Shown here: in pieces, positions 21,732 through 59,190 of the stretch
How positions within the stretch are numbered: the stretch's first letter is position 1
Layout of the letters: each line of letters starts with the position of its first letter
From: Bacillota bacterium
Lineage (GTDB): Bacteria > Bacillota > Clostridia > Monoglobales > Firm-18
Assembly: GCA_022706765.1 (NCBI GenBank)
Contig: JAKJBX010000001.1
Span: forward strand, 140,534 to 204,533
Length of the DNA stretch: 64,000 nucleotides
Direction of reading: 5' to 3'
The notes under the pieces: model-generated
Told to the model about the DNA's origin: nothing
The model's input: only the letters and a program-made list of their open reading frames with translations
Database searches by the model: none
Position numbers and translations under genes: made by a program

Positions 21732-22012
21732 TTAGGCATAGGGGAGTCGAACCCGCATAGGTTTTGGGTGGTGGATTTGTGCTCGTGCGGCGCAAAATCT
21801 TTTGGCAATACGTCAGTATTACCTGCGTGATTTTGCTTGCCCAAACAAAAATCCACTCATCCACAACTGCGTAGCACCCCTGCCGTCGGAATTTTGGATG
21901 GATTTTTTGGGCGGAGGACGAAGCCTTGCTGACGCAAGGCAAGGACGACAACGGCAAAATACGCAAAAATTATACGGCAGGGGCTGTGTGTGTTTGACTC
22001 CCCTATGCCTAA
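21732..22012. repeat. 281-bp element closed by a 21-bp terminal inverted repeat (MITE-like or large structured RNA)
   Basis: ttaggcataggggagtcgaac (21732-21752) pairs with gtttgactcccctatgcctaa (21992-22012); 20 of 21 pairs are Watson-Crick and one is G-T. There are several internal complementary segments and no ORF. The right arm is repeated at 23788-23819. Confidence 0.6.
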
Positions 22013-22042
22013 GACAAGCTTTAAGGAGGATTCGGGTAAAGT

Positions 22043-22465
22043 ATGGAAGTTGAAATCGGCAAAATCATTGAGGGAAAGGTGACAGGCATTACGAATTTCG
22101 GCGCATTTGTTCAGCTCAGCGTCGGCAAGACCGGTCTGGTACACATTTCCGAAGTAGCGCTTGCATATGTCAAGGATATCAACGAACACCTTAAAGTGAA
22201 CGATGTGGTAAAAGTCAAGGTCATTTCGATTGACGACAAGGGGAAGGTCAGTCTTTCGATCAAAAAAGCGCTGGAAGACGAGCAAAGGAAAGCTGCCCGC
22301 AAGCCTGCGAACGTCGAGTTCGGACAAAAGGGTGCGCCTACGGAGCTTTCGTTTGAAGATAAGATGAAGCAGTTTATGCAAAATAGCGACGAGAAGATGA
22401 CCGACCTGCGCAGAAACATGGACTCCAAGCGCAGCGGCGGCGGATACAGACGCTCCGCGCATTAG
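22043..22465 (+). CDS. S1 RNA-binding domain protein (YabR-like)
   Basis: The S1 domain reads GKIIEGKVTGITNFGAFVQL...GLVHISEV. AAGGAGG lies upstream. Confidence 0.85.
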   Translation: MEVEIGKIIEGKVTGITNFGAFVQLSVGKTGLVHISEVALAYVKDINEHLKVNDVVKVKVISIDDKGKVSLSIKKALEDEQRKAARKPANVEFGQKGAPTELSFEDKMKQFMQNSDEKMTDLRRNMDSKRSGGGYRRSAH

Positions 22466-22474
22466 TATCGGAAC

Positions 22475-22541
22475 AAAGCGTCCGGGTCGCAGCGGTTTTT
22501 TGAATACATCCGCTCGCAGCCCTTACGCGGGGCTTGCGTGG
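22475..22541 (+). repeat. partial, diverged copy of the 42198/58607 intergenic repeat family
   Basis: aagcgtccgggtcgcagcggttttttgaatacatccgctcgc aligns with aagcgttctggcgcatagcgctttcccgaacgcatccgctcgc (42198-). The alignment includes an exact catccgctcgc. Confidence 0.4.
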
Positions 22542-22560
22542 TTTTCTATCAACAACAAAA

Positions 22561-22596
22561 AGCTGTGTTCTGCCAATGCAGAATACAGCTTTTTTT
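22561..22596 (+). terminator. Rho-independent terminator of yabR-like gene
   Basis: A 13-bp stem agctgtgttctgc / gcagaatacagct with a caat loop, followed by T6. Confidence 0.75.
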
Positions 22597-22812
22597 GACT
22601 TATAGGAAATCCTTTCCTATAAGTCAAAAACATTTAATTGATTCCTTGGCAAAGGGTCATGTCAGCGTACCAAAAAGTGCCGTAAGGCACTTTTTGACTT
22701 ATAGGAAATAGGGATTTCCTATAAGTCAAAAACATTTAATTGATTCCTTGGCAAAGGGTCATGTCAGCGTACCAAAAAGTGCCGCAAGGCACTTTTTGAC
22801 TTATAGGCAATT
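22592..22812. repeat. tandem repeat, 2.2 copies of a 99-102 bp unit made of two hairpins and a conserved spacer
   Basis: Units start at 22597, 22696 and 22798 (gacttatagg...). Each has a long palindrome (tttttgacttataggaaat...atttcctataagtcaaaaa), the spacer catttaattgattccttggcaaagggtcatgtcagcgtacc, and the hairpin aaaaagtgcc-G(T/C)AA-ggcacttttt. Confidence 0.9.
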
Positions 22813-22883
22813 ACGCAAAACCGGCGCAATTTCTGCGCTCCGGCGAAGTAAATTCCGCCTGTGCTTTCGCCTGCTGTGTCCGC

Positions 22884-23498: not shown

Positions 23499-23787
23499 AA
23501 ACACAAATTTCGACATCAAGAAAATTTATCCCGCAGTACGCAGCGGTACGTTGAATTGATTGCGCCGCCGAAATTTTTCTTGCAAAGAGCGCTTGGAAAC
23601 GGCGATCAATTATACCATTATCTTAGCATATCTTAAAAGGGTATATAAAATGATTGCCTGAGAAAGCAAAAAAACACGCTTAAAATTTTGTTTGAGAACA
23701 ACGCAGAAGCCATCCTGTTATATATGCCCGGCACTGATTCAGGCAGGCAAGGCAATTCAAAAACGGGTTCATATTTGAATTGCCTTG

Positions 23788-27917: not shown

Positions 27918-27952
27918 AAAAAGGGCAGGGGCTTCTCTCGAAGCCTCCACCC
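27918..27952 (-). terminator. intrinsic terminator inside the oadG/oadB leader (possible attenuator or riboswitch expression platform)
   Basis: On the minus strand, gggtggaggcttc-gaga-gaagcccctgccc is followed by TTTTT. This lies about 50 nt upstream of the small-ORF start and about 80 nt downstream of the promoter. Confidence 0.5.
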
Positions 27953-28035
27953 TTAAAGCTACAAATCTTGAAAGCAGATACCAGACTATAACATGAACAT
28001 CTGCCCAACCGAAAATAAGGTATTTAATTATTTTA

Positions 28036-28064: not shown

Positions 28065-28293
28065 TGTTATTGGCGCAGTTAGAAGTATAATCTTTCATTT
28101 TACCATTATATGCGTAATCGGCAATTCAAAACCACTCGATAAATTCCTGTTTATCTGCTATCATATACAAATGCTTATCAACTTCGCTTTTACTGTATGA
28201 AATAAAGAAATCAATCACTTTTACAAGCAATTGACTTCTTTCGACAAACATTTTGCCTTTGTTGCTCAAAAAAGATGCAGGTTGTTTTCGGGC

Positions 28294-28346
28294 ATAAAAA
28301 TTCGCCCATAGCAATTACTATGAGCGAAATAAACGGACAATGTCCG
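28294..28346 (-). terminator. hairpin pair and terminator immediately 3' of tRNA-Val (conserved with the tRNA-Leu flank)
   Basis: On the minus strand, the hairpin cggacattgtccg is followed by the stem ttcgctcatag/ctatgggcgaa (one mismatch) and TTTTTA. It differs from 36337-36399 at 5 of 63 positions. Confidence 0.65.
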
Positions 28347-28423
28347 TGGTAGAGACAGCGGGATTCGAACCTGCGACCTCTCGCATGTGAAGCGAGCACT
28401 CTAACCAGCTGAGCTATGCCTCC
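28347..28423 (-). tRNA. tRNA-Val (anticodon CAC)
   Basis: The reverse complement is GGAGGCATAGCTCAGCTGGTTAGAGTGCTCGCTTCACATGCGAGAGGTCGCAGGTTCGAATCCCGCTGTCTCTACCA. It folds as a cloverleaf with anticodon loop TTCACAT and an encoded CCA. It has one A-C mismatch in the T stem and G-U pairs in the acceptor stem. Confidence 0.8.
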
Positions 28424-28488
28424 AAATACTATTCTATTATATATCACAATAGGACAAAAAGCAATAGTACAGGAGAAAAGTTAAGGAT

Positions 28489-28605
28489 TTTTTATCTGAT
28501 AGGAAATTTTTTAAATTTCCTATCAGATAAAAACATTTAATTCATACCTTGATAAAGGGGTTCGTTTGGCATCAAAAGCGACGAAAGCGCTTTGTTCCCC
28601 CGCCA
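28489..28605 (-). repeat. diverged copy of the 22592-22812 repeat unit
   Basis: The palindrome ttttatctgataggaaattt / aaatttcctatcagataaaa is followed by aaaaacatttaattcataccttgataaagggg. Compare aaaaacatttaattgattccttggcaaaggg at 22626. Confidence 0.6.
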
Positions 28606-36290: not shown

Positions 36291-36346
36291 TTTGGGATAT
36301 TTTAAATGGTATGTTATACAAACAAGGATGCAAGCGGGTTTCGGGC

Positions 36347-36399
36347 ATAAAAATTCGCTCACAGCAATTGCTGTGAGCGAATTAAACGGACAATGTCCG
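36347..36399 (-). terminator. hairpin pair and terminator immediately 3' of tRNA-Leu (conserved with the tRNA-Val flank)
   Basis: On the minus strand, cggacattgtccg is followed by the 13-bp stem attcgctcacagc/gctgtgagcgaat and then TTTTTA. Confidence 0.75.
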
Positions 36400-36487
36400 T
36401 GGTGCTGGTGACCGGAATCGAACCGGTACGGGGTATTAGCCCGCAGGATTTTAAGTCCTGTGCGTCTGCCAGTTCCGCCACACCAGC
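36400..36487 (-). tRNA. tRNA-Leu (anticodon TAA)
   Basis: The reverse complement is an 88-nt class II tRNA (GCTGGTGTGGCGGAACTGGCAGACGCACAGGACTTAAAATCCTGCGGGCTAATACCCCGTACCGGTTCGATTCCGGTCACCAGCACCA). The anticodon loop is CTTAAAA, there is a long variable arm, and CCA is encoded. Confidence 0.9.
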
Positions 36488-41600: not shown

Positions 41601-41609
41601 GTGGGAATA

Positions 41610-42197
41610 ATGAAAAGGATCATATTAGCGTCCGCCTCGCCCAGGCGCAGGGAGCTTTTGACTCAACTGGGGCTTCAATTTGATGTGGCGGTGTCGGATG
41701 CGGACGAAGCTTTTGACAAGCATCTATCGGCGGAGCAAAACGTGATGCGCATTGCCTCCGGCAAGGCAAAAGCGGTGGCGTCACAAATAGACGGCGACTG
41801 TCTCATCATCGGCGCCGATACGGTGGTCTGCTGCGGCGAAACGGTGCTGACCAAGCCGCCTGACGAGCAGTCAGCCTTTGGGATGCTGCGGATGCTCAGC
41901 GGCAGGACGCATACCGTTTATACGGGCTTTGCGGTGCTGAGGACAAGCGACTTTCAGCTGGAAACCGGCTGTGAACAGACGCAGGTCACCTTTCGTGATT
42001 TAACGGACGAGGACATCGCAGGCTATATCAAAACGGGAGAGCCGATGGATAAGGCGGGCGGCTACGGCGTTCAGGGCATCGGCGCGGTGCTGGTGCGCGC
42101 TATCTGCGGCGATTACAGCAATGTGGTCGGGCTTCCTCTCGGCAGCCTTGCGCAGACGCTCGGCAAATTCGGGATAAAAATCTTATCATCAAAATGA
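41610..42197 (+). CDS. maf: Maf-like nucleoside triphosphate pyrophosphatase
   Basis: Contains IILASASPRRRELL, GADTVV and GAYGIQG-like GGYGVQG. GTG 41601 is an alternative start. Confidence 0.9.
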   Translation: MKRIILASASPRRRELLTQLGLQFDVAVSDADEAFDKHLSAEQNVMRIASGKAKAVASQIDGDCLIIGADTVVCCGETVLTKPPDEQSAFGMLRMLSGRTHTVYTGFAVLRTSDFQLETGCEQTQVTFRDLTDEDIAGYIKTGEPMDKAGGYGVQGIGAVLVRAICGDYSNVVGLPLGSLAQTLGKFGIKILSSK

Positions 42198-42310
42198 AGC
42201 GTTCTGGCGCATAGCGCTTTCCCGAACGCATCCGCTCGCCGCGCGAGCGTGAGCGCAGGTAAATTCATTTTACCGCAGTGCAGAAATTGCGCCGGTTTTG
42301 CGCAATTTCC
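42198..42310 (+). repeat. structured intergenic repeat, copy A (between maf and mreB)
   Basis: About 75% identical, without gaps, to 58607-58721 over the first 92 nt. Hairpins are gcgttc../..gaacgc, ggtaaa-ttca-tttacc and gaaattgcgc-cggtttt-gcgcaatttc (42283-42309). Confidence 0.7.
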
Positions 42311-42334
42311 AATAAATAAAAAGGAGACAGATAA

Positions 42335-43345
42335 ATGGCAAGCAAGGACGTCGGAATTGATTTGGGCACGGCAAACACATTGGTACATGTCAAGGGCAGA
42401 GGTATCGTCGTCAGGGAGCCGTCGGTCGTGGCGGTGAACAAGGAAACCAGGCAGGTGCTTGCCGTCGGCGACGCCGCAAAGGATATGCTTGGCAGAACGC
42501 CGGGGAATATTACAGCGATACGCCCGATGAAGGACGGCGTCATCGCCGATTACGATATTACACAAAAGATGATCAAATATTTCATCAGCAAAGCCTGTCC
42601 GAAATCAGGGTTTTTCAAACCCCGTGTCATCGTCTGCATACCGTCGGGCGTGACGGAGGTTGAAAAACGCGCGGTGGAGGAAGCGGTCATGCAGGCGGGC
42701 GCAAGGGAAGCGTACCTGATAGAGGAGCCTATGGCGGCGTCCATTGGCGCGGGTCTGCCGGTCGACGAGCCGATGGGCAGCATGGTGGTCGACATTGGCG
42801 GCGGCACGACCGAAGTAGCGGTCATATCGCTCGGCGGTATTGTCACCAGCGTGTCCCTGCGCAAGGCAGGCGACGCGCTCGACGATGCGATCGTGCAGTA
42901 CATCAAAAAGAACAACAATCTGATGATTGGCGAGCGCACGGCGGAGGAAATTAAAATGGTGCTCGGCAGCGCATACCCTATTGAAGAAAACAATGAGATC
43001 GAGGTCAGGGGTAGGGACCTTATTACGGGACTGCCCAAGACCATTCTGCTGACGACGGCAGAGGTGCGGGAAGCGCTGAGCGAGCCGGTCGAGGCAATCG
43101 TTGAGGCGATTAAAACAACGCTGGAAAAAACACCGCCGGAGCTTGCGGCGGATATCATTGAAAGAGGCATCATGCTGACAGGCGGCGGAGCGCTTTTGAA
43201 GGGGCTTGACAGGCTGATCACTGCGGAAACGGGTATGCCCGTGATGATTGCCGAAGCGCCGCTTGACTGTGTCGCCATCGGAACGGGAACGGTCTTGAAT
43301 GAAATCTCCACCCTCCGTAAGGTGCTGATGTCGTCTAAGCGATAG
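42335..43345 (+). CDS. mreB: rod shape-determining protein MreB
   Basis: Actin-fold motifs are present ([20 protein letters not shown]). Confidence 0.95.
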
Positions 43346-49040: not shown

Positions 49041-49109
49041 TCTAAGAAAAAATCAGCGCAGACGGATTCACTTCGCCGGAGCGCAATTAAATTCAAAGGA
49101 CTGGTATAT

Positions 49110-58114: not shown

Positions 58115-58579
58115 GTGATCATTATGCAGCCAAAAACACCGCAGGAAACCGAGGTCGTGATGTCGGAGCTTGTGCTCCCCAACGACACCAACCTTTTGGG
58201 GAACCTCATGGGCGGACGTTTGATGTACTGGATGGACATCGCCGGCGCATTGGTCGCTTCACGCCATTCGGGCAGGGTCGTCGCCACCGTTTCGATTGAC
58301 AATATTTCCTTCCGTCATCCCGTCAGGATGGGCGAAATGCTGATGATCAAGGCAAAGCTGGTCTATGTCGGCACCACGTCGATGAGCATCGCCATCAAGG
58401 TCTATGCCGAGAATATGCGAAACGGCAGCCAGGTTTTGTCCAACAAGGCGCGCATGATTTTCGTCGCGCTCGACGAGGCGGGCAACCCCACTCCTGTGCC
58501 GCCGCTCTCGCCGCAGACGGAGGAGGAAATCATGGACTTTGAAAAGGAAAAAATGCGCAGAGTGGGAAAAAGCTGCTGA
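58115..58579 (+). CDS. hotdog-fold acyl-CoA thioesterase
   Basis: LVLPNDTNLLGNLMGGRLMYWMD is typical of the YciA/Acot-type 4HBT family. ATG 58124 is an alternative start. Confidence 0.8.
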   Translation: MIIMQPKTPQETEVVMSELVLPNDTNLLGNLMGGRLMYWMDIAGALVASRHSGRVVATVSIDNISFRHPVRMGEMLMIKAKLVYVGTTSMSIAIKVYAENMRNGSQVLSNKARMIFVALDEAGNPTPVPPLSPQTEEEIMDFEKEKMRRVGKSC

Positions 58580-58606
58580 GGTTAATAATTTTTTGAACAT
58601 TTGAAA

Positions 58607-58721
58607 AAGTGTTTCGGCGCGTAGCGCTTTCCGAAACGCATCTTATCGCCCCGCGAGGGTAAGCGCAGGCGAATTTATTTCGCCGAAGCGTGGAAATTAC
58701 AACATAAATGTTGTAATTTCC
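58607..58721 (+). repeat. structured intergenic repeat, copy B (between thioesterase gene and rplS promoter)
   Basis: It is homologous to 42198-42310. Hairpins are gtgtttc../..gaaacgc, ggcgaa-tttat-ttcgcc and ggaaattacaaca-taaa-tgttgtaatttcc (58692-58721). Confidence 0.7.
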
Positions 58722-58848
58722 TAAATTAAATAAAAAACACTTGCAAGTTGACAGAATATATGTTAAAATATGCTTTGTGTTTAATAACGGGCAATCCGCT
58801 GCATCCATCGTCGGTGTATGACTGTCTTAGAAGAAAGGGAGAACATTC

Positions 58849-59190
58849 ATGGATTTGGTAAAACAGATAGGTGCCGATCAAATCAGAACGGACCTGCCGC
58901 AGCTTAATGTCGGCGACTCTGCCCGTGTTTACATTAAGGTCAAAGAGGGCGCAAGAGAGAGGATACAGATGTTTGAAGGCATCATCATCAAAAAGAACCA
59001 TGGCGGAATCAGCGCAACCTTTACGGTTCGCCGTGTCTCCTATGGTGTCGGCGTTGAAAAGACCTTCCCGGTGAACTCGCCGAACATCGACCGCATCGAA
59101 ATTATCCGCAAGGGTAAGGTCAGGCGTGCGAAGCTCTATTACCTGCGTGACAGAGTCGGCAAGGCTGCCAAGGTCAAGCAAAGGCTGTAA
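58849..59190 (+). CDS. rplS: 50S ribosomal protein L19
   Basis: The L19 sequence is conserved ([28 protein letters not shown]). TTGCAA-17-TAAAAT lies upstream (about 58741-58769). Confidence 0.95.

Follow-up and report, generated by a model that had tools for sequence, protein, structure and literature searches.

A modular four-hairpin intergenic repeat family, with one copy between maf and mreB, in a small lineage of uncultured Clostridia

Elements derived from IS200/IS605 carry subterminal hairpins at both ends, lack terminal inverted repeats and target-site duplications, and have a short conserved motif directly on their 5' side. The defining features of classical MITEs (Correia, ERIC, RUP and Nezha) are terminal inverted repeats and target-site duplications (PMC3049150, PMC3184786). 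REP sequences and BIMEs are built from single imperfect palindromes of 20-40 nt that have a 5' GT[AG]G head, alternate in orientation and are mobilised by RAYT proteins (PMC2817692). BOX elements of Streptococcus pneumoniae and S. suis have the arrangement boxA-boxB(n)-boxC, in which boxA and boxC pair together and are similar to the terminal inverted repeats that an IS element carries. They have been judged parasitic, with side effects on co-transcribed genes (PMC3049150).

We analyzed a stretch of 64,000 nt (the window) in which the spacer between maf and mreB is filled by a structured element, copy A. The initial annotation described this element and a second one, copy B, as paralogous structured elements. 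Our analyses confirmed that A and B are homologous and have the same four hairpins. However, they revealed a multi-copy, modular, dispersed intergenic repeat and not a two-copy paralogous structured RNA, with partial, tandem and decayed copies, that is absent from the maf-mreB spacer of relatives and lies in either orientation in a copy-rich genome. We interpret copy A as probably one insertion of an undescribed family of dispersed intergenic hairpin repeats of ~125 nt (BOX/BIME-like), spreading as selfish DNA. Its hosts (the window genome, Firm_18, ADurb.Bin193 and STF2_145) belong to one small lineage within the uncultured Clostridia. The window contains five copies or fragments, A to E: two full, two partial and one decayed (Table 1).

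Table 1 Positions of the repeat copies, the hairpin modules of copy A and the adjacent genes in the window.
Feature	Positions	Strand	Evidence
maf, upstream of copy A	41601..42197	+	homologs carry PF02545; synteny with relatives
Copy A, full element (M1-M2-M3-M4 and A-rich tail)	42196..42324	+	R1 124 bits, E=1.3e-44; module HMM matches
Copy A, module M1 / P1: outer stem GCGTTC/GAACGC around inner hairpin GGCGC-ATA-GCGC	42199..42229	+	RNA fold, consensus fold; covariation at columns 9/29 and 10/28
Copy A, module M2 / P2: CGC-GCGA-GCG, 3-bp stem with GNRA-type loop (42240-42249), flanks CGCTC/GAGCG	42233..42255	+	column pair 47/54, RNAalifold
Copy A, module M3 / P3: GCGC-A-GGTAAA-TTCAT-TTTACC-GCA-GTGC	42253..42281	+	fold, covariation at 68/78, RNAalifold
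Copy A, module M4 / P4: 10-bp hairpin GAAATTGCGC-CGGTTTT-GCGCAATTTC	42283..42309	+	RNA fold, 34-copy pairing test
mreB ribosome-binding site AAAGGAG	42320-42326		
mreB, downstream of copy A	42335..43345	+	84% amino-acid identity to ADurb.Bin193 MreB
Copy B, full element flanked by a 4HBT thioesterase gene (58115-58579) and the rplS promoter (rplS, 58849-59190)	58606..58735	+	R1 125 bits; Pfam on flanking genes
Copy C, partial (M3-M4 only), directly 3' of the spoVT stop codon	22793..22872	-	nhmmer E=3.5e-11; R1 46.9 bits
Copy D, hairpin M3 alone (GCGCAGACGGATTCACTTCGCCGGAGCGC, 49055-49085), with dapF and an aminotransferase gene on either side	49050..49108	+	nhmmer E=2.3e-6; R1 17.4 bits, E=1.7e-4
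Copy E, decayed, M1-M2-like, P1 stems broken	22476..22545 (approximate)	+	R1 14.6 bits, E=0.0019; alignment to A, L009 and L025

At its 5' end copy A directly adjoins the maf stop codon (TGA, 42195-42197), and at its 3' end an A-run merges into the mreB ribosome-binding site. P4 ends at 42309-42310, 24 nt before the mreB start codon, as first described. We compared this junction between genomes. The order peptidase U32, dUTPase, NusG_II, intervening genes, maf, mreB, mreC, mreD, PBP2 is common to the window, Bin193 and a further locus (L031), and the closest relatives of the window Maf, Bin193 among them, are only about 60% identical to it. The assemblies MWCQ01 and JAKJBY01 encode identical Maf proteins and probably represent one species. 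The maf-mreB spacer is 137 nt in the window, where the element fills it, versus 15 nt in Bin193 and an overlap of the two genes in L031. Because the window spacer has no predicted promoter or terminator and the two genes are so closely coupled in relatives, the maf-mreB transcript almost certainly includes copy A, as the initial annotation had proposed. The spacer comparison also indicates that copy A is a lineage-specific insertion and not an ancestral part of the operon. In the converse case, Bin193 has an M3-M4 copy in a 103-nt spacer between mreC and mreD, genes that abut in the window and in L031. No orthologous insertion common to two genomes was seen among the loci examined.

The gap-free alignment of A and B gave 77% identity over 92 nt, in line with the earlier estimate. 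Over 161 columns their mean column identity is 80%, and in the cross-genome identity comparison it is 75%. The compensatory differences that had been noted between the two copies largely hold. In P3, GGTAAA/TTTACC in A corresponds to GGCGAA/TTCGCC in B, two double-sided changes that keep the pairing. P4 has the same base, GAAATT/AATTTC, in both copies but a different interior, which is still paired in each; the P4 interior of B is unique within the family. Pairing is also kept in P1 (GCGTTC/GAACGC in A, GTGTTTC/GAAACGC in B), but the matched insertion proposed there is a C-G to U-A substitution at columns 9/29 of a 34-copy alignment. P1 also has a U.C mismatch in A at columns 10/28 and a U.G in B at 5/34.

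On the + strand, four local hairpins form in each of the two copies: P1, which encloses a further hairpin, and P2, P3 and P4. The RNA fold energies are -50.4 kcal/mol for A and -50.2 kcal/mol for B, with z-scores against dinucleotide shuffles of -3.8 and -6.0, respectively. We evaluated covariation with the 34-copy alignment (A2) and a structure that we specified. Standard pairs occupied 98.0% of the pair cells versus a shuffled mean of 93.3%, and 12 pairs changed on both sides versus a shuffled mean of 4.5; none of 500 shuffles reached either value, counts that are not probabilities because the 34 copies are related by descent. Sliding the 3' partner by 1-3 columns reduced pairing to 33-54%. 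Variation in paired columns is half that in unpaired columns (0.083 vs 0.166), and 86 of the 108 non-consensus pair cells (80%) are still paired. The clearest exchanges in P1 are at columns 10/28 (CG in 16 copies, GC in 16) and 9/29 (CG in 25, UA in 5), that in P2 is at 47/54 (GC in 18, CG in 16, none unpaired), and that in P3 is at 68/78 (GC in 23, AU in 8, GU in 3).

RNAalifold, run without a supplied structure, recovered P1 and its inner hairpin, a 3-bp P2, and P3. An apparently invariant G11.U23 pair was dropped, since RNAalifold pairs G11 with C27. For P2, the longer palindrome that RNAfold chose for copy A was rejected: it is 83.6% paired across the alignment, against 99% for three base pairs and a GCGA loop, and the P2 covariation supports the 3-bp stem closed by that loop. 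The initial annotation took the covariation as a sign of selection on a folded RNA or cruciform DNA. The pairing-preserving changes do extend over the 34 copies; they do not, however, distinguish RNA from single-stranded DNA during spread. What the alignment indicates is a constraint on pairing within a single strand, and compensatory changes in DNA palindromes can also arise without selection, through templated correction of quasi-palindromes.

We scanned a 24-nt pattern (GGCGCNTAGCGCTTTCCNNAACGC) against one genome per species and obtained 33 exact matches at 28 loci in three MAGs: Clostridiales bacterium Firm_18 (24 matches), Firmicutes bacterium ADurb.Bin193 and Eubacteriales bacterium STF2_145. 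The initial annotation had allowed that no further copies might exist; these are 33 more, all in other uncultured Clostridia. A looser pattern found 17 metagenome contigs, mostly from the Firm_18 population; we assign to this population the contigs that overlap the fetched loci, which match Firm_18 at 99.5-100% identity. The element pattern had no match among viral contigs, plasmids and phages. Literature searches on the MAG names and on element sequence strings returned no prior description.

Module HMMs revealed that the unit of ~125 nt consists of four independent hairpin modules in the invariant order M1-M2-M3-M4, where M1 is P1, M2 is P2, M3 is P3, and M4 is P4 with a conserved tail (consensus CCTATAAGTTAAAAAA). 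Besides M1-M2-M3-M4, we found M1-M2-M3, M1-M3, M1-M2-M4, M3-M4, M3 alone and M1 alone. Five loci (L009, L011, L022, L024 and L005) contain arrays, all head to tail on a single strand, such as M1-M2-M3-M4-M1-M2-M3-M4 in L022 and M1-M2-M3-M1-M2-M3-M1 in L024. Both M1 and M3 start with AAGCG, and the A-rich 5' flank of full copies is also kept in M3-M4 copies, which fits deletion between short direct repeats. The elements average 59% G+C, versus 39-52% for the host DNA examined.

Two individual loci deserve description. At L047 (1078-1111), a copy with M1-M2 only lies between GTGCTGTTTT and AAAACAGCAC, seemingly the arms of a pre-existing hairpin flanked by A/T, so this insertion appears to have landed in a hairpin loop. 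L036 and L009, the same Firm_18-population locus in two assemblies, are 99.7% identical over 1586 nt, and four of the five differences fall within one element copy, at the P3/P4 junction and in the P4 loop. This suggests either gene conversion between copies or repeats mixed in assembly.

Within the window, a profile built from A and B found copies C and D, and a later covariance model of the family, R1, also detected copy E. Copies C and E share one spacer in opposite orientations, and copy C is followed by a second repeat family and a terminator. Besides the M3-M4 copy C (minus) and the decayed copy E (+), this 420-nt spacer downstream of spoVT (22463-22883), a repeat hot spot, contains a native terminator and some 2.5 units of the second family. 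The 201-aa ORF adjoining it (21857-22462, -) has no Pfam match at E<=0.001. The second family (22593-22811 and 28488-28560) has a 102-nt unit, present as a tandem pair at 22613-22709 and 22715-22811 that is 98% identical, with a related piece at 28515-28559. Each unit carries the inverted pair TTTTTGACTTATAGGAAAT / ATTTCCTATAAGTCAAAAA at its boundaries and a terminator-like hairpin (AAAAAGTGCCGTAAGGCACTTTTT) within. In the 28.5-kb copy the two arms have changed in a matched way (ATCTGATA / TATCAGAT). In sequence, the arms almost match the M4 tail of the main family, and among the loci searched the palindromic form occurs in the window genome only.

Other non-coding features of the window were also recorded. 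A block of ~75 nt (23549-23621), which lies roughly 120-190 nt 5' of the spoVT start, matches L026 7343-7418 of ADurb.Bin193 at 85% identity despite saturated silent sites. A CGCCG/CGGCG hairpin and, on the minus strand, a TGGTATAAT-like box are present in this block, which has no Rfam match and may be a conserved promoter or leader. A 104-nt direct repeat (28268-28371 and 36321-36424, 81% identical) overlaps the 3' parts and adjoining DNA of two different minus-strand tRNA genes (28350-28423 and 36403-36487). A Na+ riboswitch aptamer (RF03071, DUF1646 motif) at 27942-28010 (-) scores 42.5 bits, just over the gathering score of 40.5.

All copies of the main family are intergenic by our crude longest-ORF gene calls. 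They occupy A/T-rich spacers that are different and non-orthologous in each genome. The element typically starts a few nucleotides 3' of a stop codon, and the A-run at its 3' end is closely followed by a ribosome-binding site or by a canonical terminator separate from the element. Housekeeping genes with no relation to one another flank the copies; the downstream genes are unrelated in more than 40 copies, and among the loci examined no gene family was repeatedly present beside the elements.

This distribution bears on whether the elements are independently transcribed genes for trans-acting sRNAs, or riboswitch-like leaders that sense a ligand or protein for mreB and rplS. The well-folded, covarying structure would suit such RNAs, as would the position of A just upstream of mreB and of B upstream of rplS. 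However, neither A nor B has a sigma-70-like promoter or an intrinsic terminator within or bounding it, and the promoter-like site before rplS (TTGCAA-17-TAAAAT, 58741-58769) is downstream of copy B and outside the element. The Rfam 15 scan of the A/B region gave no match, in agreement with the initial annotation, which had recognized no named RNA family. Over the whole window at gathering thresholds, only three tRNAs and the Na+ riboswitch were found, all elsewhere; in local scans at E up to 10 the best hit was BsrF, with 17 bits versus a cutoff of 50, and no IS605-type motif appeared. Together with the unrelated downstream genes, the partial and tandem copies, and the empty site upstream of mreB in relatives, the distribution of the element contradicts an sRNA or leader role, which we consider very unlikely. 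We favor a repeat family over an RNA gene or leader because the element is multi-copy, has modular, tandem, truncated and decayed forms, is polymorphic as an insertion within an operon, takes either orientation in Firm_18 and lacks transcription signals. The element has no conserved reading frame either: stops abound in all six frames, and the loop of P3 has an indel of 2 nt that shifts the frame.

P4 is a strong 10-bp hairpin, and many copies lie at gene 3' ends and adjoin genuine terminators, as might be expected of an intrinsic terminator or attenuator cassette in which P4 stops transcription at gene ends. However, P4 of copy A is followed by an A-rich tail without a U-tract, no U-tract is present on the reverse strand, and no terminator-like site was found in A or B. 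Several copies are followed by a separate canonical terminator, and copies inside operons (maf-mreB and rplJ-rplL) need read-through. We therefore rejected the identification as an intrinsic terminator, and a terminator function for the family is extremely unlikely.

The main alternative is a host-serving role as a cis-acting RNA module. Lying sense inside operons and 3' UTRs, the stem-loops could block 3' exonucleases, set processing sites or uncouple the translation of cistrons, and the covariation would then reflect selection on RNA. P2 has a GNRA-type loop (GCGA) with clean covariation, and the element is more conserved across genomes than mreB DNA. Between co-directional genes, all 11 intact copies in the window and Bin193 are sense, beginning 0-33 nt past the upstream stop codon, and none is antisense, the decayed copy E being excepted, whereas in Firm_18 four are sense and seven antisense; these counts rest on the crude longest-ORF gene calls. 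In Firm_18 locus L013, a core operon reads rplJ-element(+)-rplL-element(-), so that the first copy is sense and the second antisense. In 28 of 33 copies the + strand has a more stable fold than the - strand, with a mean difference of 2.6 kcal/mol. Sporadic mismatches (19 G.U versus 11 A.C) are not significantly asymmetric. The orientation bias and the stabler + strand leave room for RNA selection or for strand-specific insertion, and the latter, combined with gene-strand bias, could also produce the sense bias. Strand-specific behavior of the element is thus suggested but not established. GC skew simply follows the gene strand and is uninformative on replication direction. Considering also the tandem, truncated and decayed copies, the element-free operon junction of relatives and the unrelated housekeeping genes at the flanks, we think a cis-acting RNA role unlikely.

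We compared sequence conservation between the window and Bin193. Amino-acid identity is 84% for MreB, 60% for Maf and 65% for MreC, and the third-codon identity of mreB, maf and mreC is 37-42%, i.e. saturated. Copies A and B, by comparison, are 78-89% identical to copies from the other three genomes. They are closer to those copies than to each other, indicating that subfamilies cut across genomes. Possible causes of this similarity are horizontal exchange, or sequence constraint tied to propagation or function.

The 5' end AAAGCGTTCGGGCGC and the 3' end GCGCAATTTCCTATAAGTTAAAAAA of the element are not complementary, so terminal inverted repeats are lacking, and the folds and RNAalifold gave local hairpins only, with no long-range 5'-3' pairing. 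No target-site duplication was detected: in 21 copies, the longest word common to the 5' and 3' flanks averaged 6.0 when both came from one copy and 5.99 when flanks of different copies were combined (p=0.53 by permutation). The 5' neighbor is nearly always AAA, within [AT]AAA, which is weak evidence in such A/T-rich spacers. The lack of inverted repeats and duplication rules out a classical MITE, and a unit of ~125 nt with four different hairpins, in arrays that do not alternate in orientation, rules out a REP/BIME; GTAG is present only inside the inner loop of P1, and there is no 5' GT[AG]G head. An integron attC site was likewise ruled out, given the four local hairpins and copies dispersed between housekeeping genes. 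No mobilizing gene was found beside the elements. A tblastn search with two IS200/IS608 TnpA sequences, a weak test for a Y1 transposase, gave nothing at E<1 in the 359 kb examined. At L013 (3783-4500), the one gene bracketed by two inverted full elements was considered as a transposase cassette and rejected, because the ORF encodes ribosomal protein L7/L12 (rplL).

We propose that the family would spread as non-autonomous DNA, with the hairpins as the selected feature, such that a copy unable to fold would not be propagated. Selection on hairpins during spread would explain both the compensatory differences between subfamilies and the 78-89% identity despite saturated silent sites. More speculatively, the mobilizing activity might act on single-stranded DNA by recognizing its hairpins, in the manner of IS200/IS605 TnpA and RAYT proteins; such a mechanism is our best guess because inverted repeats and duplications are missing and the hairpins appear to be under selection. 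In the maf-mreB transcript, copy A would add four stable stem-loops to the mRNA without terminating transcription, and an influence on the stability or processing of this mRNA, if there is one, would be incidental.

We also considered that the family could be more than selfish DNA, namely the RNA or single-stranded-DNA partner of an unrecognized protein conserved in this lineage, which would be either part of a new hairpin-guided mobilization system or a host RNA-binding factor. This would explain the fixed order of four hairpins at 78-89% identity across genera with saturated silent sites, the subfamilies common to several genomes, and the all-sense intact copies in two of them; we hold it to be distinctly improbable.

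The family has practical and biological implications. Comparative RNA screens would miscall these covarying blocks of ~125 nt as sRNAs or riboswitch candidates, and the family model R1 and alignment A2 allow them to be masked in annotation. Small dispersed repeats have rarely been described in uncultured Clostridia from anaerobic digesters, and this one is unusual in having four unrelated hairpins in a fixed order, conserved above mreB DNA across genus-level or deeper divergence. The maf-mreB junction, otherwise tightly coupled, tolerates 120 nt of stable secondary structure. If its mobilizing enzyme were identified, the family would give access to hairpin-dependent transposition outside Proteobacteria.

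The initial annotation had raised a known REP/BOX-type repeat, or an Rfam family with a known role, as a possible identity. The element does behave like a REP/BOX-type repeat, being dispersed and modular, but it belongs to no previously named family. BOX is similar by analogy, not homology: both are small dispersed intergenic repeats whose ordered modules can be absent or repeated, both would form extensive stem-loops if transcribed, both lie inside operons and at gene ends, and the effects on co-transcribed genes are likely to be similar. Unlike BOX, the four modules here fold locally and the two ends are unrelated, and the hosts are uncultured Clostridia whose genomes are far more diverged than those of pneumococcus and S. 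mitis. The consensus presumably has no resemblance to that of BOX.

With REPs and BIMEs the element shares G+C-rich extragenic palindromes, mosaic modular clusters, the lack of terminal inverted repeats and target-site duplication, sites that follow a stop codon and precede another gene or a terminator, and a proposed spread as single-stranded-DNA hairpins. It differs in its fixed series of four different hairpins arranged head to tail, in lacking a 5' GTAG head, in having no RAYT gene seen near the elements, and in copies so far seen in tens versus more than 100 per genome for REPs. Classical MITEs resemble it in size (~100-150 nt), intergenic position, extensive base-pairing, frequent co-transcription and variable presence between genomes, but the element has neither their terminal inverted repeats nor their target-site duplications. 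Elements derived from IS200/IS605 are similar in their subterminal hairpins and in the lack of inverted repeats and duplication, and AAA nearly always takes the 5' position here; the internal M2 and M3 have no counterpart in them, and no cognate IS or TnpA was found in the 359 kb. On present evidence, this is a new family of a known kind of repeat and not a new type of system.
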